Counted from the first letter of the stretch, positions 20,317-39,351 are shown. The stretch: 64,000 nucleotides of DNA from an uncultured Phycisphaerales bacterium (GCA_963755915.1 CAVWLP010000002.1:832001-896000), one strand, 5' to 3'. The notes: generated by a model not told the origin, from the sequence alone. Program-made: numbers and translations.

Positions 20317-20407
20317 TTTTCGGTTTTTTGTGGCAAACCTCGGGGGTGAAAGATAGGTTGGCGGGTTGTTTCCAGCGGGGGGAGGCTGGAAAAAAGGGAG
20401 GCAGGTG

Positions 20408-23128: not shown

Positions 23129-23367
23129 CATTTCTGTTGTATTTGCCGGCATAGGGTACTACCGTACCGAACGTCCATCCTTTCTTGAGGGCTGGGTTTC
23201 GGCATTCCTTTTCTGGCCGAAATATTTGCAAAATGTTAGCGGATAAAAGCGTGCCCACTGTTGGGACGTAGAGGGAGAGGGCATCAGCGTTGTGAATTTT
23301 ATTCAATTGGGTACGCACGGATTTGCTCGGCTGGCAAGCAGACAGCGTCGCAAGCAAAGAGGCCAAC

Positions 23368-26076
23368 ATGACGTCGAAAAAACGAAAATTTCGAGACAGA
23401 ACAATTACGCGGCGAATAGCCTTTCTGTGGTCGGCATCAACATTCGGAATCGCCCAAGTGGCATGGGGCGCTAACACCACCTACGTCGGGCCGAACAACG
23501 GCGATTTTCTCACGCGCGGCTATTGGAGCACGGGAAATGCACCCGCCTCCGGTGATGACGTTTATGTCGGGCCGGACGAGGGCTCCGCTACTTCCATGAA
23601 CGTCAACTTCGATTACACGCCGGCGGATTACAGCAGCGGCGGGTTCAATGATCTGTTTGTTGATTCTCCATCGACCAGCCAGAACATGACCGTCACCGAA
23701 AGTCCTAGTACGGAAGCTGGTGTTGCGCTTGAGACGGCTGAACTGAATCTCGGAGTAAACTCCAACAGCACGGGCACATTCATCCAGGGCGGCACAAACA
23801 TCACTGCGAACACTATTTCCCAGGGCATTAATGTCGGAAGCACCCTGCAATACGCGGACGGACCCACTTTCACGAATTGCTCGGGCGCTTATGAGTTGAT
23901 GGACCCCTCGGGCTCCATTAACGCCGGATATATCGCCATCGGCGCACAAAGCTCCGAGTTCACACAAACCGCCGGTTCGGTCACCGCCGGCTCTCTTCAG
24001 CTCGTCGACACCGATGGTTCCGGGTCTGACGAATACAACATGTCCGGCGGTACCCTGACAACAACTGGCTATATCTCGACTGCTCTGTATTCGCTCATTC
24101 CGGGTCAACAGGGAACTTTTTCCCAAACCGGGGGAAACGTCACCATCGCCTCGCCCTCGAGCCCCAGCTCTTTGGCCATTAACACAAATAGCCAATACAG
24201 CCTTTCAACGACCAGCGGCCCGGCCAGCCTTCAGGTCTATGGAAATCTCATCTGTCAGAGCACTTCCGGCAGCGATGGATTCACCCAGACCGGCGGAAGC
24301 GCCAATATTACCGGCAACGTCGAGCTGCAAAGCGACGGAACGGCGATCAACAACAGTACTTACGCTTACTTTCCAGCTTACCTGTCGTTCGGCGGCACCG
24401 CCGATTTCTCCGTCGGCGGCACACTCTCCCTCGGCACGTACTGCACGTATACTCAAAGCGGTGGCTCGGTCACGGTCGCCGGTACATTCTCAATCAGCGC
24501 TGCCAACTTGATACAAGGCGCCGCCAGCGCGAGCCTGTCGTCCGGATCCCTCAGCGTCGGAATGCTGGACACAAATGGCGCACCATCGAACTTTACCTGG
24601 ACCGGCGGCACGCTGACTCTCACGGGCCAGCCTCTCGACTTCGACTCCCCCGCCAGCGACAGCGATGCAAGCCTCGGTAATTCCCTGACGCTCGGTTCGA
24701 GCCAAGCTCTCACCGTGGAGGCCTACGAATGGCTCAACGGCAGCGGCGCCTCGGTCTCCCAAGCCAGCGGCAGCACGAACATCTGCACGGACCTCTATCT
24801 GGGAAACAGCGATGTCAGCACCTCTTACCAGCTCAATACCGGCGCCACGCTGACCACCACCTACGCCCCCTCCGGTTATCAATACATCGGCTACGAAGGC
24901 GGCGACGGCTCGACAGATACATTCCAGCAGTTCGGCGGCTCTAACAATTCCAACGACCTGTACATCGGATATAGCGACAACGCCATCGGCACATACACCC
25001 AGACCGGAGGAACCAACGGCGTCACGGGAAACCTTTACCTGGGCTATTCCGGCGGGACGCAGGGGACGTATACGCTTAACGGCGGGAACCTCACCGCTGA
25101 GAATGCCTATGTCGGCGGCACCAACGGCAACGAAGCCGGTGGAAAGGGAACGCTAAACATTTCGGGCAGCGGACAAATGACGGTTGACAACACGCTCCTG
25201 GTCTACGGCAACGGCAACGGAAACACGGTCAACATCTCAGGCGGCACACTCGATGTGCTGGGCAGCACGATCAATGAAGCGAGCATTACGCAAACCGCCG
25301 GCGGCAGCCAACTCGGTCCGGTCAGCGGTATTACGGGCACCATCGTCCTGGGCCAATCCTCAGGCAAACCCACGGGCATGTCGGTGCAGTCCATCGTTCA
25401 ATCGAGCGTGACCATCAGCAGCACTGGAACCCTGACGATTCTGACTAACGCGGTATCCACCACCAATACCCTCAACTCCCTGAGCGTCACCGGAAACGGG
25501 ACGCTGAACATTACGAACAATCATCTGTTCATTGATTACGGAAGCGGCTCCGACCCTGTCGCCTCCATCGCCGCCTATATCAAAAGCGGCTACAACGGCG
25601 GAAACTGGAACGGTCCGGGCATTAACTCTTCCGCCGCCGCATCCAACCACGCCTATGGCGTCGGCTGGGCCGACGGAAAAGACGGTGTCGTCTCCGGGCT
25701 CTCCTCCGGCGAGATTGAAATCAAATACACCCTTCTCGGCGACGCCAACCTCGACGGCACCGTCAATGGAAGTGATTTCAGCATCCTCGCGGCCAACTTC
25801 GGCACCGGCCACACCAACTGGGACCAGGGGAATTTCCTTTACGGCAGCTCCGTGAACGGATCCGATTTCTCCGCCCTCGCCGCGAATTTCGGCCAGGGCG
25901 ACAGCGGCGCGGCTGTCGCCGTATCACAATCCGACATGGCCGCGCTGGATGCGTTCGCGGAGGCGAATGGGTTGCCGATGCCGGCGATTGGGGCCGTGCC
26001 GGAGCCGGCGAGCGCCGGGATGGTCATCCTGTCCGGACTTGGCACGCTGGCTCTGCGGCGGCGAAGGCGCGGCTGA
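23368..26076 (+). CDS. Beta-helix/passenger-like surface protein with dockerin-like module and PEP-CTERM
   Basis: MTSKKRKF.. signal; FTQTGG repeats; shared module; VPEP-TM-RRRRR. Confidence 0.9.
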   Translation: MTSKKRKFRDRTITRRIAFLWSASTFGIAQVAWGANTTYVGPNNGDFLTRGYWSTGNAPASGDDVYVGPDEGSATSMNVNFDYTPADYSSGGFNDLFVDSPSTSQNMTVTESPSTEAGVALETAELNLGVNSNSTGTFIQGGTNITANTISQGINVGSTLQYADGPTFTNCSGAYELMDPSGSINAGYIAIGAQSSEFTQTAGSVTAGSLQLVDTDGSGSDEYNMSGGTLTTTGYISTALYSLIPGQQGTFSQTGGNVTIASPSSPSSLAINTNSQYSLSTTSGPASLQVYGNLICQSTSGSDGFTQTGGSANITGNVELQSDGTAINNSTYAYFPAYLSFGGTADFSVGGTLSLGTYCTYTQSGGSVTVAGTFSISAANLIQGAASASLSSGSLSVGMLDTNGAPSNFTWTGGTLTLTGQPLDFDSPASDSDASLGNSLTLGSSQALTVEAYEWLNGSGASVSQASGSTNICTDLYLGNSDVSTSYQLNTGATLTTTYAPSGYQYIGYEGGDGSTDTFQQFGGSNNSNDLYIGYSDNAIGTYTQTGGTNGVTGNLYLGYSGGTQGTYTLNGGNLTAENAYVGGTNGNEAGGKGTLNISGSGQMTVDNTLLVYGNGNGNTVNISGGTLDVLGSTINEASITQTAGGSQLGPVSGITGTIVLGQSSGKPTGMSVQSIVQSSVTISSTGTLTILTNAVSTTNTLNSLSVTGNGTLNITNNHLFIDYGSGSDPVASIAAYIKSGYNGGNWNGPGINSSAAASNHAYGVGWADGKDGVVSGLSSGEIEIKYTLLGDANLDGTVNGSDFSILAANFGTGHTNWDQGNFLYGSSVNGSDFSALAANFGQGDSGAAVAVSQSDMAALDAFAEANGLPMPAIGAVPEPASAGMVILSGLGTLALRRRRRG

Positions 26077-26594: not shown

Positions 26595-27173
26595 CTATCG
26601 CTGGGCGATTTTTTTTGCCTTTGCGGCCTCGGCGGGCGTGGGCTCTCCGGCATCGTCAGGCACGGGGGCCAGCAGATCTCCGAGGATGGCGCCGATTTCG
26701 GTTCCGGTTCCCGGCAGGATGGCGGAGAAAATCGCGGCGGCGATGGGGCTCAGCGCCGTCGCGGCGGATTCCTTGACGGCTTTGGCGCCGATGCGGGCGG
26801 CGCGAACGCGGTCCTTGAGCATTCCCGTCGAGATATATTGCCGCATGGCGGCGACGTCCCGGGGATCGACCGCGCCGCGTTTGGTTTCAGCGTGGCCGGG
26901 CAGGGCCGTCAGGGCGTGGACCTCGGCGACGCCGCACAGGAGCAGAATCGGAGGCAGCCCCAGCGCGGATCCGAGTTCGACGATGGTCGAGAGCCGCGGA
27001 TCGCTGTAGCCGGTTTCGATCTGGGCAATCGTGGCGCGGGAGATTCCCGAGGCCTCGGCGAGTTCCTGCTGGGTGACTCCCGCGGCGACGCGGGCGACGA
27101 CGAGGTTCTTGGCAAGAACCGTTTCGGCCGCCTCGCGGATCGGAGAACTGATTGTTTTATGCACCGGAACCAT
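26595..27173 (-). CDS. XRE/Cro-CI HTH transcriptional regulator
   Basis: [34 protein letters not shown]. Confidence 0.9.
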
Positions 27174-27326
27174 ACAGACCGCGTTTTTCGAAGGATGCTT
27201 TCATCACCATTCTGCAACGATCAGAGTGGACGCGGCGTACAGCGCGATCGGGCGGCGATCTCACCTGGACGCTTCATCCGTGAAGCACGGGAACGAGGAT
27301 TCTTCAGGGGGTTACGCATGATCGCA

Positions 27327-27551
27327 TCAGTTCCAATTGGGATCGAAATGCGCCGGCGACGGTACAGACGCCTCTGCAACCAGCACGGCATTGGTGTACG
27401 CCCACTGATAGATCGCTTGCGCGAACGGGAATGAGTTGGGGAGCACCAGGCAAGCGGGGCAGGAAACGAACGCGGGTTGAGGCGGCGGCAGAGGACGGTT
27501 CTTCGGCGAGCGTCCCAAGAGCAAGTTCCGCATTTGCTGTTTCGTTGTCAT
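27327..27551 (-). CDS. Small hypothetical protein with CPAC motif
   Basis: MTTKQQ...FVSCPACL...AIYQWAY...DPNWN; GAGG upstream. Confidence 0.55.
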   Translation of the reverse strand: MTTKQQMRNLLLGRSPKNRPLPPPQPAFVSCPACLVLPNSFPFAQAIYQWAYTNAVLVAEASVPSPAHFDPNWN

Positions 27552-27570
27552 CGAAGTTGCCTCGCTGTCT

Positions 27571-27594
27571 AATCCTACTAAATCGACCGGAGTT
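27571..27594 (-). promoter_or_regulatory. Candidate operator, copy A (Rrf2/CymR-like)
   Basis: Reverse complement AACTCCGGTCGATTTAGTAGGATT shares A.TC...T.G..TTAGTAGG with copy B. Confidence 0.4.
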
Positions 27595-27768
27595 ATAGAT
27601 ATCATGATAGGATATCGGTAAACAGTCAAGTAAAAAGGCACGATTTTTGCAATTCGTCTAACAAACCGGACATTGACGAGCTAATTATACGAAGTCTAAT
27701 CGATTGTACATTAACGAATTATGGCTTGAACTTGATGGCTCCGGTGCGGATACTCCCGCCAAGACATT

Positions 27769-27791
27769 ATTCATATAGGATTAGTAGGCAA
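27769..27791 (+). promoter_or_regulatory. Candidate operator, copy B, abutting the start codon; TTGAAC-17-GATACT promoter-like sequence at 27726-27754
   Basis: ATTCATATAGGATTAGTAGGCAA, first 17 nt 16/17 identical to copy C. Confidence 0.5.
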
Positions 27792-28912
27792 TGGAAAGAA
27801 ACCGCAAAGCGTTTACCCTCGTGGAACTCCTCGTCGTCATCGGAATCATCGCGGTTCTGGTTGGCATTCTGCTTCCGGCTTTGTCCAAAGCGCGCGAGCA
27901 GGCCAACACGGTCAAATGCGCTTTGAATCTGCGCGGCATCGGCCAGGCATTCCAGCAGTATCTGACGGAGAACCAGGACACGTTTCCGCCATCGAATTTT
28001 TACACAGCGCTACAGGTGAATATCGGGGCGGGGACGCAATCGCCTTTGACGCCTGGGGCCGGATACACACATTGGTCGGCGCTCATCAATGGATCGGCGA
28101 AGTGGGAACCGGCTGAGGATTACCTGACGAACTGCTACCAGACCGGCCAGACTCCGAGCCTCAGCGCTTGGCAACTTGCTCCGTTTCTCAACACGGCGGC
28201 GTGGGGTCAATACCAGTGCCCCAGCCTGGTGGATGGGGGTTTGCCACCCGCCAATACATACGCCGCCAATAACGAACTGGGAATCCAAAACGAGGCGGGT
28301 CCAACTTGGATCGACATTCAGGCGCCGCGATTGGCATACACTGCGAACGAAGCGCTTTGCCCGCGATCGTATTACATTCACGCTCCTTCGGGGTTTGCGC
28401 ATCCCGTTCTTCAACCGTACCATTTTGTGCGTTCGGGCAAGGTGGCGCACAGCGGAAGCACGATTCTGGCGGCGGAGCTTTGGGGATTTCAGTATGACGC
28501 GATCGCCAAATCGCAAATTGACGGCGCCTCGCAGGTGAGCAACACTCGCCGCCCGGTGTCGGGATTCATCGCGCCGGGCACGCTGGGTCCTGACTATCTG
28601 TATACGTCGCTGACGGGAATCTTCCAGCCTGTTTCCCCCACCGTGGACGACATGACGCCGGATCCTGAAACGTCGTTTCAGGCGACGGCGGCGGCTGGTG
28701 GTTTTCCGAACCCGACGACAACGCTGGATTTTATAGGCCGAAATCACGGGAGAAAGTCATACGGCCACGTTGCGGGGAGCATCCGCGGCGGATGGGACCT
28801 GCGAACCACGAATTTTCTCTATGTGGATGGGCATGTTGAAACCAAGCACGTAGCGGAAACGATCTATCCAAACAATCAGTGGGGCGACGAGATGTACTCG
28901 TTGCAGAATTAA
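27791..28912 (+). CDS. Prepilin-type N-methylation / DUF1559 (H-X9-DG) protein
   Basis: AFTLVELLVVIGIIAVLVGILLPALSKAREQA; C-terminal RNHG...NFLYVDGHV. Confidence 0.92.
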   Translation: MERNRKAFTLVELLVVIGIIAVLVGILLPALSKAREQANTVKCALNLRGIGQAFQQYLTENQDTFPPSNFYTALQVNIGAGTQSPLTPGAGYTHWSALINGSAKWEPAEDYLTNCYQTGQTPSLSAWQLAPFLNTAAWGQYQCPSLVDGGLPPANTYAANNELGIQNEAGPTWIDIQAPRLAYTANEALCPRSYYIHAPSGFAHPVLQPYHFVRSGKVAHSGSTILAAELWGFQYDAIAKSQIDGASQVSNTRRPVSGFIAPGTLGPDYLYTSLTGIFQPVSPTVDDMTPDPETSFQATAAAGGFPNPTTTLDFIGRNHGRKSYGHVAGSIRGGWDLRTTNFLYVDGHVETKHVAETIYPNNQWGDEMYSLQN

Positions 28913-29047
28913 CAGTCGCCTGTTCCGGAGGGAAAGAAAATGAGTCACGTCTTTCGCTGTTGCCGCAGGGGATAGCCGTTCTGCGCAGATTAGTTGTATC
29001 TTGAATAAACACAATAACTTGCATCCATATTTACTGGGAAAGAAACC

Positions 29048-32000
29048 ATGAAAATTTCACGCATTAACCGGGGACTTATTCTTGCGGGGGCCGTGGCCGC
29101 GGCCATGAACTCCATTCAGGCTTTTGCCGGAACCTCCACCAACACAAGCGGACCCGTTCAGCAGGGTCAATCGGATGGGGGGACGGGAAACCCGTCGCTG
29201 AATAACCCGGCCGTCACGATTTCATTTGCAGGCCAAACCGCCCTGCAGAATTTTGACGAATCGCCGGGCATCACCGAACTGGCGCCGGGCACGTCGATCG
29301 TGCTTCATGATGGAACCAACGGTGCGCCGGTAACGTACATCGCGCCCAACAACAACTCCGATTACGTGCAGCTGGCTAATCCGAATTTCGGCACGCCAGA
29401 TACAAGCCCTGGAACTCCAACCGATCCATCGACCTCGACGGAACAGATCGCCTCGGCCATTCGCCTGGAATGGCACTCGGAGGGTTCGATCGATGGCTTT
29501 TACGATCTGATCAATGACGAGATCGGATTCAACCAGACCTCCGGTCCCATCTCCAACGAAGCTTTGCGCACGCCGTCCAGTTCGAATCCGACGTGGATCA
29601 ACACCAACGAATTCACCGCCGGCGGGACGAGCAACGGATTTACGCTCGACAATTCCGCATCCGACGACCTGGCCAACACCTACAGCACGACCGTTTACAA
29701 CCAGGCGACGGGCGTGAATCTGCTCGGCGGTCAAAACCGCGTGCAGTTTTCGGTTGGGGAATATCCGACCGAGGCGTTTGCGGTATCCGGCACCCCCAGT
29801 CCAACCGCCACGCCAGGATCACCCGGTTACGGGCAGGGCAATCCCGCGCTGAAGACGGGGTCAGTGCTTACGAATCTAGGGACGGCCGGTGGACGGCAGC
29901 AGTTTCAATCGTCGTCGATCGCGAACGAATCGACGAGCATCGATGATCCCCAGACGGACGCCGCGTATGCGGCTGGCCCATGGAACACCGCGGGCGCAAA
30001 CAACATCACCAGCACGCCATTCGCCGTGACAGCGGTAACGTATTCCGCCAATCCCGGAACCGGCCTCGAGCGGCTCAATGAAACCGACGCGCAGTGGCTC
30101 CAGACCACCGGCCGCCTGCAAAACGGTGCCCTCTTCAACGTCGTCGCCCGCACCGTCGATACCGGGCAGCGCGTGGTTTTCGCCGCGAATACCGGCGTCG
30201 ATCCCTCATGGGCAGTGGGAAGCAACGACGACGGCAACACGACCAGTTCGGCCGCCGGAAAGGCCCAGGATTCGATCGGGGCGTCGTACCGGTACGACGG
30301 AAAGACCAGCGGTAGTCTTGCCCAGACGACTATCTCGAACGGCCGTATGGCCGTTGGCGCACTGTCCATCCCCGAGGCGCAGAAAGCGACCCAGACCACG
30401 CCGATTCGCGCCTTGGACATCGGCTTCAATTACACCAGCAGCAACGACCCGACTCTCTCCAGTTACGGCAGCGACAACAACGACAGCAACCCTGAATTCG
30501 TGCGGGCGGATTTCAACACGATCGTCAGCAGCAATTCCACCACGCGCTACCAGGCGGTGCTCATCTCGCACTACAACACGGTGAAAACGCCCAACCAAAC
30601 CGCACTCGACGCCGAGCTGACGGCAGAGGACATCGACCCCTCGAACGCGACGCCTGCCCAGCAGTCGGCTGCCTGGGCCGCGATCCCCAGCTTCGATCCC
30701 TCGACGGCGGAGACGGACGGCACACCGTCTTTCCCCGTCTCGGGGATCAAGGGGGACACCACCGGCGACGTCGCCGCCTTCCTCTCCAACATCGTCAACA
30801 GCGTCGGCACGGCCGCCGCGGGGCTCACCCCGACAACCGTCAACAATCCCGCGGACAATCTGTTCCTCAATGGCTATCTGATTCCCGGCTTGCTGGATTA
30901 CACGCGGCAGACCGATGGCGGTCCCATCACGCCGGTCACGCTGTCCCCTGCCTCCCAGACAGAACAAAACGAGGTGGAGGAAAACTATGGAAGCTTGTTC
31001 ACAACCGATGGAACCTACGCCTCCAACAATCAGACCATCGGATCGGCGCCTTACTATGGAGCGGGCAATTCGACCAACACCTTCAATGGCAACATCCCAA
31101 TTACCTCCAAGTCGGTAACCTTCACCGACGGGGTCATCACCTCGTATGCCAACGACACCACCGACGGCGACGTCACTGACGCCGGTGGCAACTATCTCTT
31201 CGGGAACTTCAACCAGAACGGCGTGCGCGATCTATCCGCCGTCGAGCAGGCCAACAACGCGGCTCTTTCGCTCACCCAGGTTGACGTCGTGGAGCATGGC
31301 GGCACCGACGGCGCCTTCACCACCAGCGGAGGCGTGTCCAACAGCACCGTCATCCCCTCCCTCGACAACACCAATGGAACGCCCGGCTGGGCCGCCACCA
31401 ATACGGATACCAAGGGCGACCTGATTGTCCTCGGCGATTACGCCGGCCAGGGGACCTTCAACGGCCAGGACCTCTACCTCCTGGACATCGGCGCATCCCT
31501 CACCAGCGCCGACAGCACCACAGGACTGAACGCGACGGCCGCCACATTCGCCGATGCCGTCCGAGACCCAACCGACATCCTGCGCAAGAATGCCGCCCTG
31601 AATTACACCGAAACCTATCTAACCACGGGTTTTGGCGGCACGAATTACCCAGCGGCTTCCGCCTATCTCCTCAAATCCGCCGCCGCCGTCCTTGAGGCAT
31701 CCAGCGTCCCATTCGGCGCTACCAGTCTCGGCACCGACCCGGTCAACGGGCTCGATGAATTCACGTATGATCCCAACGGCCAATACGCCTTCAATCCCGC
31801 CGACGTTCTCCGCGAAGGAGCCATCGACTTCAACGACGCCGTCGTTGTCGATGCAGACAACGGCGATAGCTACGAAAACCAGACCCAGTCCCTGGCTTCC
31901 ACGGCGCTAACCCCCGTTACCGGCGTGGTCGAACCCATCAATCTGGCCGTGGCTCAGCAGGTCGACGGCGAATCCGCCATCGGCTCCGCCGACGTCGCCG

Positions 32001-32917
32001 CCGTGAATACCCAGCTCACGGGCACCGGCAATACCTACTGGTTCGGCTACAACCTCCAAAAGACCGGCCCCGGCACCATCACCTGGGCCCGCACCGGTGG
32101 AACCGTCACCGTCTACTCCGGCGCGACGTTCGAAATCTCCAACGGCATCGTCCAGATCGGCGGCACCGAAGACCCCTTCTCCGACAACAACGTCAGTGGA
32201 CCCACCGCCAGCAGTCATCTGGCCATCACCGTCAACGGCGGCGCGCAGCTTCAGTTCCTCAACTCCAGCGCCAACGTCAACTACACCGTCTCCGGCCTTT
32301 CGATCGACACGACCACCAATAGCGTGGTCGATATCGCCAACCATCAGCTCTTCATCGATTACGGCGCTTCCGATCCCATCGCAACGATCCGCGGCTATCT
32401 CATCAGCGGATACAACAACGGAAGCTGGAACGGCCCGGGCATTATCTCCTCCACAGCCCAAACGCCGACCAATGGATTGCAATACGGAGTCGGCTGGGCC
32501 GACGGCAACGACGGCACCGGCAACGTCGCCGGCCTCACCAGCGGCGAAATCGAGTTGAAGTACACGCTCCTGGGCGATGCCAACCTCGACGGCACCGTCA
32601 ACGGAACCGATTTCTCCATCCTCGCCGCCAACTTCGGCCTCGGCGTCACCAACTGGGACCAGGGCAACTTCCTCTTTGGCTCCTCCGTCAACGGCTCCGA
32701 CTTCAGCGCCCTAGCCGCCAACTTCGGCCAGGGCGATAGCGGCGCCGCCAGCACGATCTCGGCCGCGGACATTTCCGCCCTCGATGCCTTCGCGGCAGCC
32801 AACGGGCTGCCAGCGCCGGTGATCGGCGCCGCCGCCGTCCCCGAACCCGCGAGCGCCGCCCTGGCAATCACCGCAGGGATTGGCGTTCTGGCCCGGCGTC
32901 GGCGTCGGCGGGCGTGA
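29048..32917 (+). CDS. Large secreted surface protein with dockerin-like module and PEP-CTERM; almost sulfur-free
   Basis: Signal peptide, non-repetitive body, shared C-terminal module, VPEP-TM-RRRRRR; 0 Cys, 3 Met by manual count. Confidence 0.92.
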   Translation: MKISRINRGLILAGAVAAAMNSIQAFAGTSTNTSGPVQQGQSDGGTGNPSLNNPAVTISFAGQTALQNFDESPGITELAPGTSIVLHDGTNGAPVTYIAPNNNSDYVQLANPNFGTPDTSPGTPTDPSTSTEQIASAIRLEWHSEGSIDGFYDLINDEIGFNQTSGPISNEALRTPSSSNPTWINTNEFTAGGTSNGFTLDNSASDDLANTYSTTVYNQATGVNLLGGQNRVQFSVGEYPTEAFAVSGTPSPTATPGSPGYGQGNPALKTGSVLTNLGTAGGRQQFQSSSIANESTSIDDPQTDAAYAAGPWNTAGANNITSTPFAVTAVTYSANPGTGLERLNETDAQWLQTTGRLQNGALFNVVARTVDTGQRVVFAANTGVDPSWAVGSNDDGNTTSSAAGKAQDSIGASYRYDGKTSGSLAQTTISNGRMAVGALSIPEAQKATQTTPIRALDIGFNYTSSNDPTLSSYGSDNNDSNPEFVRADFNTIVSSNSTTRYQAVLISHYNTVKTPNQTALDAELTAEDIDPSNATPAQQSAAWAAIPSFDPSTAETDGTPSFPVSGIKGDTTGDVAAFLSNIVNSVGTAAAGLTPTTVNNPADNLFLNGYLIPGLLDYTRQTDGGPITPVTLSPASQTEQNEVEENYGSLFTTDGTYASNNQTIGSAPYYGAGNSTNTFNGNIPITSKSVTFTDGVITSYANDTTDGDVTDAGGNYLFGNFNQNGVRDLSAVEQANNAALSLTQVDVVEHGGTDGAFTTSGGVSNSTVIPSLDNTNGTPGWAATNTDTKGDLIVLGDYAGQGTFNGQDLYLLDIGASLTSADSTTGLNATAATFADAVRDPTDILRKNAALNYTETYLTTGFGGTNYPAASAYLLKSAAAVLEASSVPFGATSLGTDPVNGLDEFTYDPNGQYAFNPADVLREGAIDFNDAVVVDADNGDSYENQTQSLASTALTPVTGVVEPINLAVAQQVDGESAIGSADVAAVNTQLTGTGNTYWFGYNLQKTGPGTITWARTGGTVTVYSGATFEISNGIVQIGGTEDPFSDNNVSGPTASSHLAITVNGGAQLQFLNSSANVNYTVSGLSIDTTTNSVVDIANHQLFIDYGASDPIATIRGYLISGYNNGSWNGPGIISSTAQTPTNGLQYGVGWADGNDGTGNVAGLTSGEIELKYTLLGDANLDGTVNGTDFSILAANFGLGVTNWDQGNFLFGSSVNGSDFSALAANFGQGDSGAASTISAADISALDAFAAANGLPAPVIGAAAVPEPASAALAITAGIGVLARRRRRRA

Positions 32918-32993
32918 TGCCCAAATCCGCTTCGCCGCCGATCGCGACTCGCTTATCTTCTGACCCTGATGCCACCCGTGGGTGGTGGCGACG

Positions 32994-33026
32994 AAATCCC
33001 CTCTGGGCTGCGCCAGGGGGGATTTT
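32994..33026 (+). terminator. Intrinsic terminator-like hairpin
   Basis: AAATCCCCTCTGG-loop-CCAGGGGGGATTTT followed by T-rich sequence. Confidence 0.6.
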
Positions 33027-33133
33027 GTTGTGGTTGGCCCGTTATTTGTCCAGATTACTGGACATCCCTTCAGCCCAGCCCAGCGTATGATGATTTGCGT
33101 CATTTACCCCGGCGGGTTGGTCGATCAATTAGC

Positions 33134-35083
33134 GTGTCAACCGTGGTTTCATGCCAAAAACAAGGCCTTCCCTGGCTTGTTGCTGAACTCGATCGGCGGC
33201 CGGGTAAGCTCGACAAGGCAACCATCTCCCGCCTTCTAACGGAAGCCAACCTGACGATCAACGACGTTGCGCCTTTTGTCGAGCAGCGAACCACTTCCTA
33301 CGCCCGGCGATGCGTCGCCCGACGAGACAACTATGAGCTGCTCGTGCTTACCTGGCTGCCATCACAGGGAAGCGTGGCGCACGATCATTCCGGATGTCTT
33401 TGCGGGCTGAAGGTCGTTCAGGGGTGTCTGACCGAGCAGCTTTTTCAGCAGGGGCCGGATGGACAGGTTCGGCGGATCAGTGATTCACAGCTTCAGGTGG
33501 GGGGAATCACGGTTGATCCCGGGGTGGTGATCCATTCGCTGACCAATGACGCGAGTTCGCCGCAGGCGCTGGTAACGGTGCATATTTACGCGCCCCCCCT
33601 GCCGGAGGTGAGACGATATGCGGTGACTTCCGAGCCGCCGGCGAAGGTGTTTGTGCGAGCCGCGGCGGCGAACGCGCAAACAGTGGCCATCGTGGGCGGG
33701 GGATTCACCGGAACGATGTGCCTCGCGAATCTTCTCCGGCTCGAGAAGGAAAGCCGGTTGCCGATGCATATCGTGCTGATCGATCGGCTGCCGGCGATTG
33801 GCGAGGGAGTTGCCTACCGAACCAACGACGGACGGCACTTGCTCAACGTCCCGGCAGGACGAATGAGCGCGTGGGCGGATCGTCCGGATGATTTCCTCCA
33901 GTTTATGCGCTCGAAGGGCCCGTCTGTAAACCCCGGCGATTTCGTTTCCCGGAAATTCTTCGGACAATACGTCCGCGAGAATCTGCTGAAGCTCGCGGAA
34001 ACAGCCGGCGAGCAGGTGAGCGTTGAAATCATTCGCGATGACGCCACTCAATTGAATCCCCAAACCGACGGGGCGTGGCGGATTGAAACAGCCGGGGGCA
34101 GAACGATCGATGCGAACCTGGCGATTCTGACGATCGGCCATCGCCCTCCTGACGATCCGTTTGGCTCGCGATGGACGGGGCTGCGGAATCGGTTCGTGGC
34201 CGATCCGTGGGCCGCGCTGGTGCTGAGCCAGATCGGGCCCAACGAGCCGGTGCTGCTGCTCGGCAGCGGATTGACGGCCGTGGATGCGATATTGACGCTG
34301 GACCGCGCCGACCGCGTCGCGCCGCTGATAACCGTCTCGCGGCGCGGGCTGATGCCGCTGCCGCATACGCGCGAGCCTCGGGCGGCGGCGGATTTGTCGG
34401 AGCTGACTGGCCAGTGGCTTGATCCATCGGCGCCGCTGACGATTCGTGAACTGGTTGACACCCTGCGGCGGCATACCGCCCTTGCGGCGCAGAATGGAAC
34501 CGATTGGCGGCAAATGATCGATGGCCTCCGCCCCGCGATTTCGCAACTGTGGGGCAGGCTTTCCTCGCCACAGCGATCGCGATTTTTGCGGCACGTCCGG
34601 CCATTTTGGGAAGTTCACCGTCATCGAATGGCGCCGGATGTCGCGGACACAATCAAAAAGCTTCGAGAGAAACGGACGCTCGAAGTCGTGGCCGGATCGG
34701 TTGTTTCCGCCCGGGCGGATGGCGAAGGCGTCGACGTCGCGGTCGCTTGCCGCGGAAATTCCTCGGTCCGCAACCTGCGCGTTTCATGGGTGGTGAACTG
34801 CACCGGGCCGGGGGCACATAACCGCCATTCCACCCATCCGCTTTTGCGACCGCTGCTGGAGCGGGGCACCGTCTGCAACGATGAGTTTGATTTGGGATTG
34901 CTGACCGATTCGGTTGGGCACGCGAGAGATGCCCAGGGGAATATGCTGCGGACGCTGCTCATCGCTGGGACCCTGCGGAAATCGACGTTGTGGGAGTCGA
35001 CGGCCGTCCCGGAATTGCGGCTGCAAGCCCAAACAGTTGCCAAAGCTGCGCTCGATAGCCTCACCAACCTCGCCACACGCTGA
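33134..35083 (+). CDS. Cysteine dioxygenase-type cupin fused to FAD/NAD(P)-binding (YdhS/NAD_binding_9-type) oxidoreductase
   Basis: YARR, LTWLPSQGSVAHDH, IHSL, VTVHIYAPP (CDO); IVGGGFTG, GVAY..HLLNVPAGRMSA, GSGLTAVD, VHRHRMAP, NCTGP, WESTAVPELR; GTG start inferred. Confidence 0.88.
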   Translation: MSTVVSCQKQGLPWLVAELDRRPGKLDKATISRLLTEANLTINDVAPFVEQRTTSYARRCVARRDNYELLVLTWLPSQGSVAHDHSGCLCGLKVVQGCLTEQLFQQGPDGQVRRISDSQLQVGGITVDPGVVIHSLTNDASSPQALVTVHIYAPPLPEVRRYAVTSEPPAKVFVRAAAANAQTVAIVGGGFTGTMCLANLLRLEKESRLPMHIVLIDRLPAIGEGVAYRTNDGRHLLNVPAGRMSAWADRPDDFLQFMRSKGPSVNPGDFVSRKFFGQYVRENLLKLAETAGEQVSVEIIRDDATQLNPQTDGAWRIETAGGRTIDANLAILTIGHRPPDDPFGSRWTGLRNRFVADPWAALVLSQIGPNEPVLLLGSGLTAVDAILTLDRADRVAPLITVSRRGLMPLPHTREPRAAADLSELTGQWLDPSAPLTIRELVDTLRRHTALAAQNGTDWRQMIDGLRPAISQLWGRLSSPQRSRFLRHVRPFWEVHRHRMAPDVADTIKKLREKRTLEVVAGSVVSARADGEGVDVAVACRGNSSVRNLRVSWVVNCTGPGAHNRHSTHPLLRPLLERGTVCNDEFDLGLLTDSVGHARDAQGNMLRTLLIAGTLRKSTLWESTAVPELRLQAQTVAKAALDSLTNLATR

Positions 35084-35231
35084 GCCCGTTCCGTTCTCTC
35101 GACAAATTGGTGATCGTCCCGCGTTTCCTCAGGGCGGAACGCGTTCGAATTTCGGTCGTTCATACCCCCGATATTTGTTGACAGCCCCGGCATTTCCATG
35201 AACATGCCTACGTCATATGGCGGGAGGAAAC

Positions 35232-35732
35232 ATGAGGATTGCCCGGCGGCTGTTGCAAACCCTCTCGGCCCTGTCACTGTTGGTGTTTGTCTCAACCCTG
35301 ACGCTCTGGGGACGTAGTTTTTTCGTCCGGGACGAATTCATTAGGCAGCATAGCGGCATTCAGCAGATGTGGGATTCTGACTGTGGGAGAATTCACTTCG
35401 GGATATTCGGCATCACGCCCGACAATGGCAATAACTGTGACTGGACCTGGGACGATAACGCGGCGCCGGGGAACACCGTTCCGCTGGCCGCATGCTCTTG
35501 GGTGCACGCGCACTTCGGAATCGGTTGGGACGTGTGCGGGTCACTCATGTGTCGAACGGCTACAGCTCGATTTCACGTCGTAGGCCGCGAGTGGTGGGTG
35601 CCATACTGGTTAGTCGCGCTGCTCGCCCTGCCGTTCGCGATGATTCTCCCGCTTCAGGTCCTTCCGTCCCTCAGACTCGCCCTGGAATGCCGGCGCAATC
35701 GAGCCGGTGGATTCCCGTTGTACCCGTTGTAA
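35232..35732 (+). CDS. Hypothetical two-TM membrane protein
   Basis: GGAGG RBS; LSLL...LWGRS N-terminal TM and VPYWLV C-terminal TM. Confidence 0.65.
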   Translation: MRIARRLLQTLSALSLLVFVSTLTLWGRSFFVRDEFIRQHSGIQQMWDSDCGRIHFGIFGITPDNGNNCDWTWDDNAAPGNTVPLAACSWVHAHFGIGWDVCGSLMCRTATARFHVVGREWWVPYWLVALLALPFAMILPLQVLPSLRLALECRRNRAGGFPLYPL

Positions 35733-35778
35733 GAACTGAAGCCCCTGAAAACTCTCTACGACCGCATCCTTCTCACGA

Positions 35779-35801
35779 ATTCCTATAGGATTAGTGTAAA
35801 T
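35779..35801 (+). promoter_or_regulatory. Candidate operator, copy C
   Basis: ATTCCTATAGGATTAGTGTAAAT, ~190 nt upstream of the Met/Cys-rich gene. Confidence 0.5.
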
Positions 35802-35992
35802 TTAAATATTTGAAAATAAAGGAGTTGCGGTGTTTCGCGGCGCATGATCGCTTAGACAAAGCGATAAAAAGGCTTGTCTCTGGAGAAGGCGCCTTGCTAC
35901 GGTGGGTCTGTCGAAAATTCGCCGCAGCGTGCGCGAGTTTTACAAGCAAAGGCCGCCGGCAATCGCGACCGGCCAAAACACGAGAGGAAGCC

Positions 35993-36271
35993 ATGAACAC
36001 AACAATGACCAGCGAGAGAATGATGAGCATGGGAATGGGAAACATGGGCGGCATGATGGGAATGCCCATGATGGGGCGCATGGGCATGAGCTCCGAAGCC
36101 GGCAGCATGCCGGGCATGATGATCCCCCGTTGCACGATGAAGATAGAGAAGTGTCCCGGCGGAATGAAAATGACCTGCATGTGCGACGACAAAACCGCCG
36201 CGATGATGATGCCCGGCATGACCTGCTGCATGATGATGAACGGAATGCCGGTCTGCTGCTGTGTGTGCTGA
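35993..36271 (+). CDS. Extremely Met/Cys-rich small protein (candidate sulfur-storage or metallothionein-like)
   Basis: GAGG RBS; 92 aa with 29 Met + 10 Cys by manual count; ends ...MPVCCCVC*. Confidence 0.8.
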   Translation: MNTTMTSERMMSMGMGNMGGMMGMPMMGRMGMSSEAGSMPGMMIPRCTMKIEKCPGGMKMTCMCDDKTAAMMMPGMTCCMMMNGMPVCCCVC

Positions 36272-36323
36272 ACCCATCAATGTAAAATCGGCTGGATAGC
36301 CTTAAGAAAAAGCTTGCCGAACG

Positions 36324-36385
36324 GGCTGCCGGTTTATTAGACTCGTCGCCCCCGAGTAACGTATGAACCGGCAGCCTTCTTTTTT
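36324..36385 (+). terminator. Intrinsic terminator-like hairpin
   Basis: GGCTGCCGGTTTAT ... ATGAACCGGCAGCC then TTCTTTTTT. Confidence 0.65.
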
Positions 36386-36409
36386 CCACTTGTTTCTGAA
36401 ATTCGCCGC

Positions 36410-36564
36410 TTCCTGGGCAGCGTGTTGTTGCTGATCCGACCTGTCCGCGCATCGCGGAGTTGAAGTTCCGTTCAGATTTAATGTCCTATTCCCCGGAGCG
36501 GCCAATTCACCTGACGGTTCCTGCTCCGCTTCCGGCGGGGGTACGCGGCACAAGCGTTCCCCCG
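36410..36564 (+). ncRNA. Structured RNA, 6S RNA-like candidate
   Basis: Ends pair (GGGCAGCGTGTTG with CGGCACAAGCGTTCCC, G-U pairs on + strand); internal hairpin CCGGAGCGG/CCGCTTCCGG. Confidence 0.4.
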
Positions 36565-36569
36565 CAAAC

Positions 36570-36641
36570 GACCATGTGGCCGAGTGGTTCAGGCCCGGGC
36601 CTGCAAAGCCCGGTACGTGGGTTCAATTCCCGCCATGGTCT
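36570..36641 (+). tRNA. tRNA-Cys (anticodon GCA), no encoded CCA
   Basis: GACCATG/CATGGTC acceptor stem, CGGGC-CTGCAAA-GCCCG anticodon arm, GGTTCAATTCC T-arm, U73 discriminator. Confidence 0.95.
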
Positions 36642-36688
36642 CTAAGATGTCCCCTTTCACACTTTTCACACGTTCACACTTTCCCCCC

Positions 36689-37683
36689 TCACTCCGCTTT
36701 GGACTCCCGCGTCATCAGCGTCGTCAGCGCCCGAATCACATCCATCCCCTCAAACAAAACCGCATGCACCGCCTCGGTGATCGGCATCTCGACCTTGTAA
36801 CGCACCGAAAGCTCGCGCACGCTGCGCGTGGTCGGCACGCCCTCGGCCACCGAGTCCATCGCACCCAGGACATCCTGCAATTTTCGCCCTTTCCCGATCT
36901 GCTCCCCCACCGTCCGGTTGCGCCCTTCGGGGCTTACGCAGGTGGTGATCAGGTCGCCGAGACCGGCGAGGCCTTGAAACGTCGACTCCGCCGCCCCCAT
37001 CGCCATCCCCAGCCGCGTGATCTCCACGAGCCCGCGCGTGACCAGCGCCGCCTTGGCGTTGTTCCCGGCGGCCAGCCCGTCGAGGATTCCCGCGGCGATG
37101 GCGATGATGTTCTTGGTCGCCCCCGCCAGCTCCGTACCGATCACGTCGGAGTTGGTGTAGACGCGGAACCACTGCGTGGAAAAGACGCTCTGGATCCGTT
37201 TGGCGAATTCGTCATCCTCCGCGGCCGCGACCGCGGTGGCGGGGAGATACCGCGCCAGCTCGGCGGCGATGTTCGGCCCCGAAAGCGCGGCCAGCTTTCG
37301 CCCCCGCCCCACCACATCGGAAATAATCTGCGTCGGCCGAAGCAGCGTCTGATTCTCAATCCCCTTCGCCACCGAAATGATCGACACCCCCGCGGGAACA
37401 AAATTCGATAGCCGCTTCCAGACGCTGCGCATGTATTGGGTGGGAACGGCCGAAAGGACCAGCGTTGCGCCGTCGAAGCATTCCGCGTCATTCGCCGTCA
37501 GGCGCACATTTTGTGGCAGCTTGACGCCCGGCAGCAGCCGCTGGTTTTCGCGGTTCTGGATCAGCCGGTTGATCGATTCCTCGAATACGCCCCAGAGCGT
37601 AACCTCATGCCCCTCCTGCGTGAGCAGCAGGCGCAAACCGTGGCCATCGCGCCGTCGCCGATGATCGTGACGCGTTCGGACAT
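36689..37683 (-). CDS. gpsA: NAD(P)H-dependent glycerol-3-phosphate dehydrogenase (frameshift near 5' end)
   Basis: MSERVTIIGDGAMAT, VAKGIE, LSGPNIA, GATKNIIAI, GLAGLGDL, GRNR, AEGV. Confidence 0.95.
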
Positions 37684-37693
37684 GGGCGGCATC

Positions 37694-39351
37694 TTATGAT
37701 TGCCTGTTGCCTATTGCCAATTTGGAAATGCTGTCCTCGAGCCCGCCAGGCCGATTGCGCCAGCCAGCAGCGGCGATGCGATTCAATCATCTCCCCCCCA
37801 TCGCCCGCGGAATGATCGCAGGCATATTCGAGCATCGCCGCGGCGTTGACGAATTCGACTTTGATCGTTGCGGCGTCGGGTACATTGAGACTGGCTTTGG
37901 AAAACCCGCGCATGGCGGATTGAATCGCCGCGCGCGCGGCTTGGAGATTCCCGGGTGTAATGCCTTCCATCGGATCTTTATGGGCGGAGCCCGGCACCAG
38001 AATATTGAACAGTGCCGAGCGATTGGGGATCAGCTTGCCGACAGATTTATAGACGTTGCCGAGATCGAGGGCGATTTGGCCGGCGACGGAGGCGGCGTCT
38101 TTGAAGGCGTAAAGATCGAGAAGGCGAGCGAGGGGAAGGTTGCGATTGGAATCGAGGCACCAACTGAGAGCCGCGCCGGCGGCGAAGCCGGGGTAGCTGA
38201 AGGGGAGATACTGGAGGTGGCCGTGGTCGCCCCAGTCGGTGTTGAGATAGCCGGCGGCGCCGTGGGCGAGGCCGGCGGTCGCGGCGGAGAGCTGATTGGC
38301 GAGCATGTTGTCCGTTCGGCCCGCGATGCTGCACCAGGAACTTGAGCCGGGACAGACGTAAAATTCCTTGCCACTTTGAGCGAGGACGCCGCACTGCTCG
38401 TCGAATGGGTGGTCGGCTTCGTACCCCCAGAGAAGGGCAATCGCGTCCTTTGGCAATTGCGGCAGCAGCGACGGTTCTTTGATGATGATGTCGCCCCAGA
38501 ACATCATCCGGCGGTTGTGGGACTGGACGAGGCGGTGGACGGAATTGAGGAAATCGAGATAGACCTGGTGGACGCCGACGCGATCGCACTGCGCGCGGCT
38601 GCGGCCCTGGCCGATGTCGAAGGTTTCGTCGCAGCCGACGTTGAAGAGCGGGCTGGAAAAATTGGGGAGGAGCTGGGCGTAGAGATCGGAAAGGAGGTCG
38701 AGCGAGCGCGGGTCGGTGGGACAGAGACTGAAGGGGCCTTTCCAGCGGAAGCCCCAGGGGGTTTCGGCGCCGCCCTGGGCTTCAGCGAGAGGGAGATAGC
38801 GCGGGTGGCGGAGCCAGCGCTCCATGTGGCCGAAACTGTTTTGATTCGGGACGAAGTCGATAAAGCGCGATTTGCAATATGTGTCAAGGACGAGGAGTTC
38901 ATCGGCGGTCAGTGGTGACGCGTTTTGCCAGACCTCTTCGTGGCCGCGGTAGGCGAAGGTGTGCTCGAGGTAGAGCTGGAGATGGTTGATTTTCCAGCTT
39001 GCCAGGAGATCGATGAGGGAGAAGAGAGTGGACATGGTGGGGACTTTGTCGCGGCTGATGTCGAGCATGACGCCGCGGACGGGGAAGTCGGGTGAGTCCT
39101 CGATTTCGAGGCAGGGAATGGCGGCGGGATAGAGGGATCGAAGCTGCGAGAGAGTCTGGCGGGCGTAGAAGATGGCGGCGGGGTCGTGGGCGATCATTTG
39201 GGAGGAATTGGGAGTAATTGAGAGGCGGTAGCCCTGGGGGGGGAGGGCGGGAGTCGAGATGTTCGACCACCGGCGCGGTGGAGGAGCCGGGGGTGCGGGT
39301 GAGTTTTCGGGGGTGGGGGAGGAGGGGAATCGGGTCCGTCTCATGGAGCAT
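37694..39351 (-). CDS. GH20 beta-N-acetylhexosaminidase-like glycoside hydrolase (frameshifts)
   Basis: RGVMLDISRDKVP, NSFGHM, NVGCDET catalytic DE, MFWGD, LNTDWGDHGH. Confidence 0.9.

Follow-up and report, generated by a model that had tools for sequence, protein, structure and literature searches.

A Met/Cys-rich protein family of Planctomycetota with a small partner protein, and its split locus in an uncultured Phycisphaerales bacterium

Introduction

In Synechococcus, the smtB-smtA system consists of the gene for a Cys-rich cytoplasmic metallothionein that is divergent from the gene for an ArsR/SmtB-type regulator across a shared operator region, while the copper storage proteins Csp1 and Csp3 are four-helix bundles, the core of which is lined with many cysteines. 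The plant seed storage proteins of the 2S albumin and delta-zein types, which are eukaryotic and secretory, reach extreme contents of Met+Cys and are read as a sulfur reserve; we know of no bacterial example of protein storage of sulfur amino acids. Here, we analyze a 64,000 nt stretch of DNA from an uncultured Phycisphaerales bacterium (GCA_963755915.1, CAVWLP010000002.1:832001-896000; G000:C2:832001-896000 in our notation), hereafter the window, which is part of a genome of 6.63 Mb in three contigs with 59% G+C. We focus on the gene at positions 35993-36271 for a 92-aa protein that is extremely rich in Met and Cys, on the family of Planctomycetota proteins to which it belongs and on the gene of a small partner protein.

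The region from 27327 to 36641 had been interpreted in a preliminary description as one coordinated sulfur-economy module, in which an almost sulfur-free PEP-CTERM surface protein, a sulfur-hoarding protein, a cysteine dioxygenase (CDO) fusion, a 'CPAC' mini-protein and a tRNA-Cys are held together by a shared operator. All of these items were found in their places when the sequence was re-read and translated. As a coordinated module, the region stood up in part: the Met/Cys protein, the CPAC mini-protein and the motif are linked, and the surface protein and the tRNA-Cys dropped out. Searches of relatives for the CDO and Met/Cys genes showed that the module is not conserved across the genus. 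The 9-kb stretch is a mosaic, in which only some of the genes belong together. Its kernel would be a three-gene module of other Planctomycetota, consisting of a regulator (of the XRE type here), a protein of ~70 aa and the divergently encoded Met/Cys protein. In G000 and, apparently, in its closest relative, G001, the two sides of this module lie 8.2 kb apart, with a pilin/PEP-CTERM pair unrelated to it, a gene for a CDO-flavoprotein and a single orphan open reading frame (ORF) between them.

With smtB-smtA, the family shares the divergent arrangement of a Cys-rich protein and a regulator, the lack of His and aromatic residues and the CxC and CC motifs. No similarity in sequence or fold was found, and the family differs in having a Met content of 22%, a confidently predicted fold, an additional, obligatory small partner, regulators of the XRE or Rrf2 type and neighbors from cysteine metabolism rather than metal genes. 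As in Csp1 and Csp3, a folded protein with a Cys-lined core is predicted, but the model is built of two beta-beta-alpha-beta-beta units and no structural match was found. The extreme Met+Cys content is shared with the 2S albumins and delta-zein, from which the bacterial family is set apart by its module of partner and regulator. The neighborhood of the family, with CBS/MccA, cystathionine lyase/MccB, CDO and a cluster-less Rrf2 protein, resembles the CymR (Rrf2) regulon of Firmicutes, whose putative gene set in Bacillus cereus includes mccA, mccB, cymR and cysteine dioxygenase (PMC3519770). In the window, by contrast, the regulator is of the XRE type, and the sole Rrf2 match in the genome lies 2.5 Mb off. 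To our knowledge, the CymR regulon contains no Met/Cys-rich protein. The almost sulfur-free PEP-CTERM protein is reminiscent of sulfur-sparing isoforms and cheap extracellular proteins, but here the trait is class-wide and present in orthologues elsewhere, and no sulfur-rich counterpart isoform was identified.

Results and discussion

A family of Met/Cys-rich proteins in Planctomycetota

Of 112 candidates from the protein search, 78 are related at E ≤ 0.01; almost all of these are 145-161 aa long and metagenomic, the sole named one being a hypothetical protein of Frigoriglobus tundricola. With one genome per species, 179 pattern matches were obtained, of which 132 were confirmed by tblastn and 80 were kept as family loci. 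These stem from Gemmataceae, Isosphaeraceae (Singulisphaera), Pirellulales and Planctomycetaceae plus one Tepidisphaeraceae record (L045), and the Met/Cys-rich ORF was recovered by script in 77 of them. Among the carriers are two cultured strains, Singulisphaera acidiphila DSM 18658 and Limnoglobus roseus PX52. The proteins consist of a variable Met/Gly/Pro-rich head and a conserved body with the core P-R-C-T-x-K-x-E-K-x-x-G-G-M-K-x-x-C-x-C-D/E-D, and their Met+Cys content is 30-45% (alignments A1 and A2). In 50 members, M accounts for 21.8% and C for 17.5% of the residues, L, I and V together for 7.8% (2.3%, 1.5% and 4.0%, respectively), F, W and Y for 0.8% (0.5%, 0.2% and 0.1%) and H for 0.0%. 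CxC, CC and CxxC patterns occur, and Met occupies hydrophobic positions of the family, where it can be replaced by L, V or T.

No Pfam or NCBIfam model matched the family, and the ESM Atlas groups it with unnamed clusters of Planctomycetota only. For L045, which of the full-length relatives is closest to the window copy (159 aa, 50-row alignment), AlphaFold2 gave a predicted local distance difference test (pLDDT) score of >90 for residues 40-159 and a disordered head (residues 1-39); the body is modelled as two beta-hairpin/helix/beta-hairpin (beta-beta-alpha-beta-beta) units. A profile search of the PDB with the family reached a best E of 0.72, Foldseek with the L045 model found nothing in the PDB at E ≤ 0.001 (E > 0.1), and the best Z in a VIA-align comparison of the family model was 4.9, below the usual background of models without a true match. 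For a predicted model, such missing solved relatives do not prove a novel fold. In titles and abstract openings, nothing was found on the family (as Met-rich or Cys-rich proteins of Planctomycetes), nor any example of a bacterial storage protein for sulfur amino acids; for metallothionein in combination with Planctomycetes, and likewise for the CDO/FAD/Rrf2 topic, nothing relevant was among the matches listed.

A small protein accompanies the Met/Cys protein

Clustering of neighboring genes first brought up a small ORF that, in 29 of 77 loci, precedes the Met/Cys gene in divergent orientation. A hidden Markov model (HMM) made from these small ORFs had a single match among the 94,064 ORFs of G000 (E 1.1e-5), located at 27327-27551 on the minus strand of the window and thus identical to the gene of the 74-aa CPAC mini-protein, and jackhmmer seeded with the latter detected homologues in 57 of 81 family loci. 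The partner gene is divergent and <600 nt upstream of the Met/Cys gene in 45 of the 81 loci, beyond a CBS/lyase pair in five and just downstream in two; in the window, it is not within 600 nt of the Met/Cys gene but ~8.2-8.4 kb away. The small protein that adjoins the Met/Cys gene in L045 was missed by jackhmmer and recognized by eye. The mini-gene differs from its counterpart in G001 by 7.5 synonymous and 10.5 non-synonymous changes and a 2-codon indel, and the resulting pN/pS of 0.44, calculated from 18 differences only, agrees weakly with continued use of the gene. The 'CPAC' mini-ORF is a genuine gene. In alignment A3 of 45 partners, one Ala is invariant, one Tyr nearly invariant and the C-terminal Asn again invariant.

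We further modelled the complex of both proteins for the Limnoglobus roseus pair with our own alignments in three runs, together with three controls. The pair scored 0.79, 0.78 and 0.80 vs 0.00 for each of the controls; in the benchmark, such a score is reached by 116 of 157 solved complexes and by 2 of 215 mismatched pairs. The runs agreed in ≥93% of the contacts, the pLDDT of the partner was ≥66, and the conserved Tyr and Ala of the partner contact helix 1 of the Met/Cys protein in the predicted interface. The prediction supports binding of the small protein to the full-length Met/Cys protein.

The Asn is the last residue in all 45 aligned partners, and it may have a chemical role. In 14 Gemmataceae loci (L030, L032, L044, L046, L065 and others), a DDE_5 transposase-like gene directly adjoins the partner gene within the order PSCyt/PSD1 gene, small ORF, DUF1559, DDE_5, partner, Met/Cys gene. 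Such a fixed synteny is unusual for a transposase-like gene such as DDE_5.

Genes of cysteine metabolism in the neighborhood of the family

Neighbors were counted with Pfam-verified seeds (phmmer, E ≤ 1e-8) in all ORFs of the 80 loci, corresponding to 830 kb. CBS-type enzymes dependent on pyridoxal phosphate were present in 13 loci (4 matches in the 6.63 Mb of G000) and a CysN/C fusion in one (3 in G000). Enzymes of the cystathionine lyase type were found in 8, CDO in 7, NAD_binding_9 flavoproteins in 8 and Rrf2 proteins in 16 loci (15 without L083), each of these four having a single match in G000. At least one of these neighbors occurred in 29 loci, or 28 without L083. By their record labels, the loci cover at least four families (Isosphaeraceae, Gemmataceae, Pirellulales and Planctomycetaceae). 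The enrichment is large, because the rates of G000, a rough proxy only for the background in other genomes, predict well under one match per type when scaled to 830 kb. As ~28 of the 80 family loci carry CBS, cystathionine lyase, CDO, flavoprotein or Rrf2 genes, we consider the link of the Met/Cys family to cysteine homeostasis real. Heavy-metal ATPase, HMA, MerR, ArsR and CsoR domains were found in none of 145 neighbor ORFs from 27 loci (Pfam), and an RND pump was present in one locus.

The earlier idea of an Rrf2 protein akin to CymR agrees with the family, near which CBS, cystathionine lyase and Rrf2 genes recur, although the window has an XRE gene and no Rrf2 gene. A neighbor cluster initially labelled 'CysA' (c6) was dropped; some of its members are FHA-domain proteins. 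Sulfatases, present in 8 of 80 loci, and DUF1559, present in 20 of 80, were disregarded, both families being very abundant in Planctomycetota.

The regulator slot and an AT-rich motif

Directly 3′ of the small-protein gene and on the same strand, a 192-aa regulator is encoded at 26595-27173 (−), which we assigned to the XRE family by a helix-turn-helix stretch read by eye. It is 94% identical in G001 and has a homologue in the same position in L045 (phmmer E 3e-13). The L045 locus, which is identical to that of G016, a genome from the window's family, has the order regulator, mini-gene and then the divergent Met/Cys gene, the divergent starts being ~300 nt apart. In other lineages, the slot directly after the small gene is occupied by a cluster-less Rrf2 gene in 11 loci; six further Rrf2 neighbors carry 3-4 Cys, and the phmmer match in L083 is a false positive. 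No Rrf2 gene was detected in the window, the single match in G000 being that at C2:3362846. An XRE paralogue near the CBS/lyase operon of G000 was considered as a further link and discarded, the match being weak (E 1e-6) and lacking the motif.

The AT-rich motif TAGGATTAG is indeed present in the three copies described before, at 27569-27577 (−), 18 nt 5′ of the ATG of the small gene, and from 27776 (+) and 35786 (+). The two copies on the plus strand share 12 identical bases, TATAGGATTAGT, which extend from 27774 to 27785, ending 5 nt before the ATG of the pilin-like gene, and from 35784 to 35795, ~200 nt 5′ of the Met/Cys-rich ORF. With three occurrences of TAGGATTAG in the window vs 0.09 expected from window shuffles, and five in the whole 6.63-Mb genome, the clustering is clearly beyond chance. 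In L045, TAGTAGGAGTAGG is located at the place equivalent to copy 1 and CCTATAGATTTAGTATAAT aligns with copy 3, accompanied by two inverted near-copies. Within 400 nt upstream of the Met/Cys gene and with up to one mismatch, the motif was found in 3 of 77 family loci, with three copies in L045. Since only these loci carry a near-copy, the motif appears to be lineage-specific, which would fit the operator of a lineage-specific regulator, and TAGGATTAG may be the operator of the adjacent XRE protein. Copy 2, at the pilin gene, is kept in G001. The pilin orthologues of G010, G008 and G007 have no copy within one mismatch, except for one in inverted orientation ~170 nt upstream in G008, and display only loosely similar TATAGGA-like strings. 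Looser patterns of the motif are common genome-wide and are partly ribosome-binding-site-like.

When the control regions are aligned, both halves of the ancestral intergenic region are seen to have remained with their own genes. TAGGATTAG is located in the control region of the small gene and in that of the Met/Cys gene, with an extra copy before the pilin gene. A simple insertion with target duplication at TATAGGATTAGT was also considered but is not supported: the flanks of the right copy are L045-like on both sides, and the copies share the 12-mer only.

The Met/Cys protein of the window is a shortened copy

The 92-aa ORF at 35993-36271 (+) encodes 29 Met and 10 Cys, 42.4% of all residues. 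The positions P45, R46, C47, K50, K53, G57, M58, K59, C62, C64 and D66 of the protein are invariant in A1, and judged by its core and composition it is a member of the Met/Cys-rich family, but it lacks the family's two-module architecture of ~150-160 aa. Its alignment covers the head together with the first and last hairpins, and ~67 residues, from helix 1 to helix 2, are missing in comparison with L045. The gene represents a one-module deletion form of the ~155-aa family that has lost its middle 67 residues. An assembly collapse can be ruled out as the origin of the short form, since a 382-nt short-read contig from a soil metagenome run spans 35916-36297 with 0 differences, although the window itself may derive from that run. 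Members of the family were found in none of the 12 other genomes of the genus, and matches were obtained in 3 of 61 relatives. The contig of G001 stops 52 nt past the CDO gene, before any position of a Met/Cys gene.

An intrinsic terminator at 36323-36385 (+), with a 14-pair stem followed by UUCUUUUUU (−39.7 kcal/mol, z −3.57, 0 of 200 shuffles as good), separates the ORF from tRNA-Cys(GCA) at 36570-36642 (+), which forms a separate transcription unit. ARAGORN identified four tRNA-Cys in G000, and the 82 other family loci have five tRNAs in all, with no tRNA-Cys or tRNA-Met among them. Given the terminator and the lack of such a tRNA near the family elsewhere, the tRNA-Cys does not qualify as part of the module. 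The leader of ~200 nt folded no better than shuffled sequences (z −0.88), and a search of 27000-37000 against Rfam at E ≤ 1 returned only the tRNA and two matches at chance level, with no riboswitch in the leader.

Genes between the two sides of the module

The fusion gene at 32969-35083 (+) encodes a Pfam CDO_I domain (52.6 bits, cut-off 23, residues 101-218) and a NAD_binding_9 domain (133 bits). By its Pfam score, the CDO domain can be assigned to cysteine dioxygenase type I, and it matches CDO chains in the PDB (E ~5e-8). The nearest solved relative of the flavin domain is an aspartate N-hydroxylase (PMC10404684). The two-domain family, with proteins of ~650 aa, comprised 1415 members at E ≤ 1e-20 among 8000 scored candidates, and the fusion represents a widespread, unstudied enzyme. 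It aligns gapless over 636 residues with 65% identity to a protein from a metagenome-assembled genome of Methylacidiphilales, from which the true start likely lies ~58 codons into the ORF, and with proteins assigned by name to Acidobacteriota and Verrucomicrobiota it shares 56-70% identity. Matches were found in 4 of 41 relatives, at full length only in G000 and G001, and among 12 congeners in G001 alone. This combination of similarity to distant phyla and restriction to G001 among the congeners suggests horizontal acquisition of the gene. Its proposed membership in the module is backed by recurrence next to the Met/Cys family in 7-8 of 80 loci from several lineages, and not by the congeners, of which only G001 has it. 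The 171-aa ORF at 35217-35732 (+), downstream of the fusion, has two hydrophobic stretches; it matched no Pfam or NCBIfam family, returned only itself in the genome search and was found in none of the family loci.

The other part of this stretch consists of a prepilin-type (N_methyl) pseudopilin-like gene at 27791-28912 (+; 373 aa), supported by Pfam N_methyl and an NCBIfam prepilin domain, and the gene for a 1289-aa secreted protein at 29048-32917 (+) with dockerin-like repeats and a PEP-CTERM-type tail. As had been stated, the latter protein has 0 Cys and one Met in its mature form: its three Met are at positions 1, 20 and 434, the first two within the signal peptide by eye. The tail, VPEPASAALAITAGIGVLARRRRRRA, was likewise recognized by eye, there being no NCBIfam or Pfam match at E ≤ 0.01, and the nearest Atlas clusters are Planctomycetota proteins, about half of which have dockerin repeats. 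The pair recurs in G010, G008 and G007 with ~60% and ~64% protein identity, and in these three genomes the PEP-CTERM orthologues have 0 Cys and 2-4 Met, and neither the CDO fusion nor the Met/Cys family was found. In G000, a crude pattern retrieved 155 PEP-CTERM-like ORFs with a median share of sulfur residues of 1.5% vs 3.3% for all ORFs, and 41 of the 155 are Cys-free. Sulfur poverty is thus a property of this class of proteins and not a signal of starvation. The sulfur-free surface protein had to be removed from the module, as the pair occurs independently and is equally sulfur-free where no CDO or Met/Cys gene was found.

No other of 846 crude ORFs of ≥500 aa is as low in sulfur as the 1289-aa protein, but 36 of the 846 are Cys-free, and the 25 poorest all have ≤~0.76% sulfur residues. 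From these numbers, we estimate a chance of ~7% to find one out of 25 such genes at ≤9 kb from any given gene, and the case for a pairing of the 'poorest' and the 'richest' sulfur protein beyond chance is weaker than that for the clustering of the motif. The sulfur-lacking PEP-CTERM protein and the tRNA-Cys appear to be coincidental neighbors.

Two more large PEP-CTERM paralogues are encoded in tandem upstream, at 20366-26076, where the 917-aa ORF at 23323-26076 is recognized by TIGR02595. The C-terminal dockerin-like and anchor region of the 1289-aa protein is also present in these paralogues, and the DNA of this region has dozens of matches in G000 and G001 with 75-85% identity. The G001 orthologue of the 1289-aa gene is divided into two overlapping ORFs of 274 and 1025 aa (C1, L089, ~5240-5250), which could result from a frameshift or an assembly error.

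Possible functions and alternative explanations

Tentatively, we infer that the Met/Cys protein could be a sink or buffer for cysteine and methionine within a cysteine-homeostasis regulon, a reading we favor because of the neighbors and regulators, the Met-rich disordered head and the placement of Met at hydrophobic positions substituted by L, V or T. The full-length protein would be cytoplasmic, with two beta-beta-alpha-beta-beta units, a Met/Cys core and a disordered Met/Gly/Pro tail, and is predicted to bind the small protein, which might serve as its chaperone or as a link to the regulator. It would be synthesized under an ample supply of sulfur amino acids and tapped during shortage. The wider claim, less likely than the sink, would be that Planctomycetes own a dedicated protein reserve for sulfur amino acids, which has a previously unseen fold with Met/Cys in its core instead of Leu/Ile/Val, is held by a ~70-aa partner and is under a cysteine-responsive regulator together with reverse transsulfuration and CDO genes.

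Several observations weigh against the favored explanation. No sulfur-related neighbor at all is present in ~52 of the 80 family loci, and because related loci are not independent, our counts overstate the association. In an even sample of 400 genomes of the phylum, 5 had a member of the family, 17 had a flavoprotein homologue and 0 had both, and none of the 17 flavoprotein loci had a Met/Cys-rich ORF within 1.5 kb. Of the columns with a Cys majority in the family alignment, 17 of 30 are ≥90% conserved vs 8 of 24 with a Met majority; such Cys conservation exceeds what a pure reserve would need, and conserved Cys with His and aromatic residues nearly absent is the classical metallothionein signature. 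As to the window, the model of the 92-aa copy is poor (mean pLDDT 51.5 with a 14-row alignment) and the copy is without helix 1, part of the predicted partner interface, so that it may be a decaying remnant. With its extra motif copy, the pilin operon may be co-regulated, and the other two exact copies in the genome are located by an ABC-type gene and inside a regulator-like ORF, away from sulfur genes.

If only its own features are considered, the Met/Cys protein is explained nearly as well as a cytoplasmic store or detoxifier for soft metals (Cu(I), Cd, Zn or Hg), folded and thiolate-lined, with the small protein as a metallochaperone or metal-sensing adaptor and the cysteine genes nearby only to meet the protein's demand for cysteine; we regard such a metal store as a close rival that is only somewhat less likely than the sink. 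It would agree with the CxC, CC and CxxC patterns and the 17 Cys columns of ≥90% conservation, with His at 0.0% and aromatic residues at 0.8%, and with the confident fold of L045 in the absence of metal, since Csp proteins are also folded without metal. The MxM/MGM repeats of the disordered N-terminal tail resemble Cu(I) 'Mets motifs', and the divergent layout of regulator and store recalls smtB-smtA. However, the Pfam analysis of the 145 neighbor ORFs from 27 loci gave no metal domains and one locus with an RND pump, the adjoining regulators are cluster-less Rrf2 or XRE proteins, and no similar solved metal protein was found (sequence E 0.72; Foldseek E > 0.1; Z 4.9). Moreover, Met reaches 22% in the family, and a high Met content is not a known metallothionein trait.

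The local module could, with a similarly limited likelihood, be a relic, in which the 92-aa ORF is a non-functional deletion product that was rearranged away from its partner among functionally unrelated neighbors. The 67 residues lacking relative to the closest full-length relative, the loss of helix 1 of the predicted interface together with the poor model and the absence of the family from the 12 other genomes of the genus point in this direction, whereas the intact reading frame with 0 differences in the short-read contig, the retained promoter-side motif and terminator and the pN/pS of 0.44 of the partner gene vs G001, on 18 differences only, argue for a gene that is kept. The model of the preliminary description, with one regulator acting through the shared motif on the sulfur-free surface protein vs the hoarding protein and with CDO and tRNA-Cys included, we consider improbable. 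It gains from the identical TATAGGATTAGT, which precedes the pilin/PEP-CTERM operon by 5 nt and the Met/Cys gene by ~200 nt, the pilin copy being kept in G001, and from the genome's lowest-sulfur large ORF and highest-sulfur ORF being 3 kb apart, but it is contradicted by the orthologous pairs that are equally sulfur-free where the CDO and Met/Cys genes were not found, by the general sulfur poverty of the 155 PEP-CTERM-like ORFs and, for the tRNA, by the 82 family loci without tRNA-Cys or tRNA-Met, the preceding terminator and the four tRNA-Cys of the genome. Hardly credible is a ribosome-stalling sensor, in which the Met/Cys ORF would be a very long leader peptide that reports the supply of charged Met- and Cys-tRNA: the terminator 3′ of the ORF would be expected in this case, but the family, with ~155 aa, also conserves residues other than Met and Cys and has a confidently predicted fold, a tRNA gene and no biosynthetic operon lies beyond the terminator, and no alternative pairing was seen for the latter.

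If the Met/Cys protein is a sulfur-amino-acid buffer, the storage principle can be tested directly in cultured Singulisphaera or Limnoglobus by way of its regulator, partner protein and metabolic genes, and a true reserve would be the sulfur counterpart of what cyanophycin is for nitrogen; if it is a metal store, thiolate-based metal handling would gain a new fold. In both cases, a domain that is modelled with confidence, contains ~40% Met+Cys and has neither a family name nor a solved relative is well suited for structural and biochemical studies.

Other features of the window

On the 3′ side of the tRNA, a gene of the GH20 beta-hexosaminidase type is located at 37605-39344 (−), which is unrelated to the finding. 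The repeated sequence ggccgccaggTATAGGAATccttcatccgtcgg has ≥9 copies in the genome, mostly within ORFs (G000 C2, e.g., at 343438, 712496, 1629235 and 1676873), and is probably a multi-copy gene or an insertion sequence.

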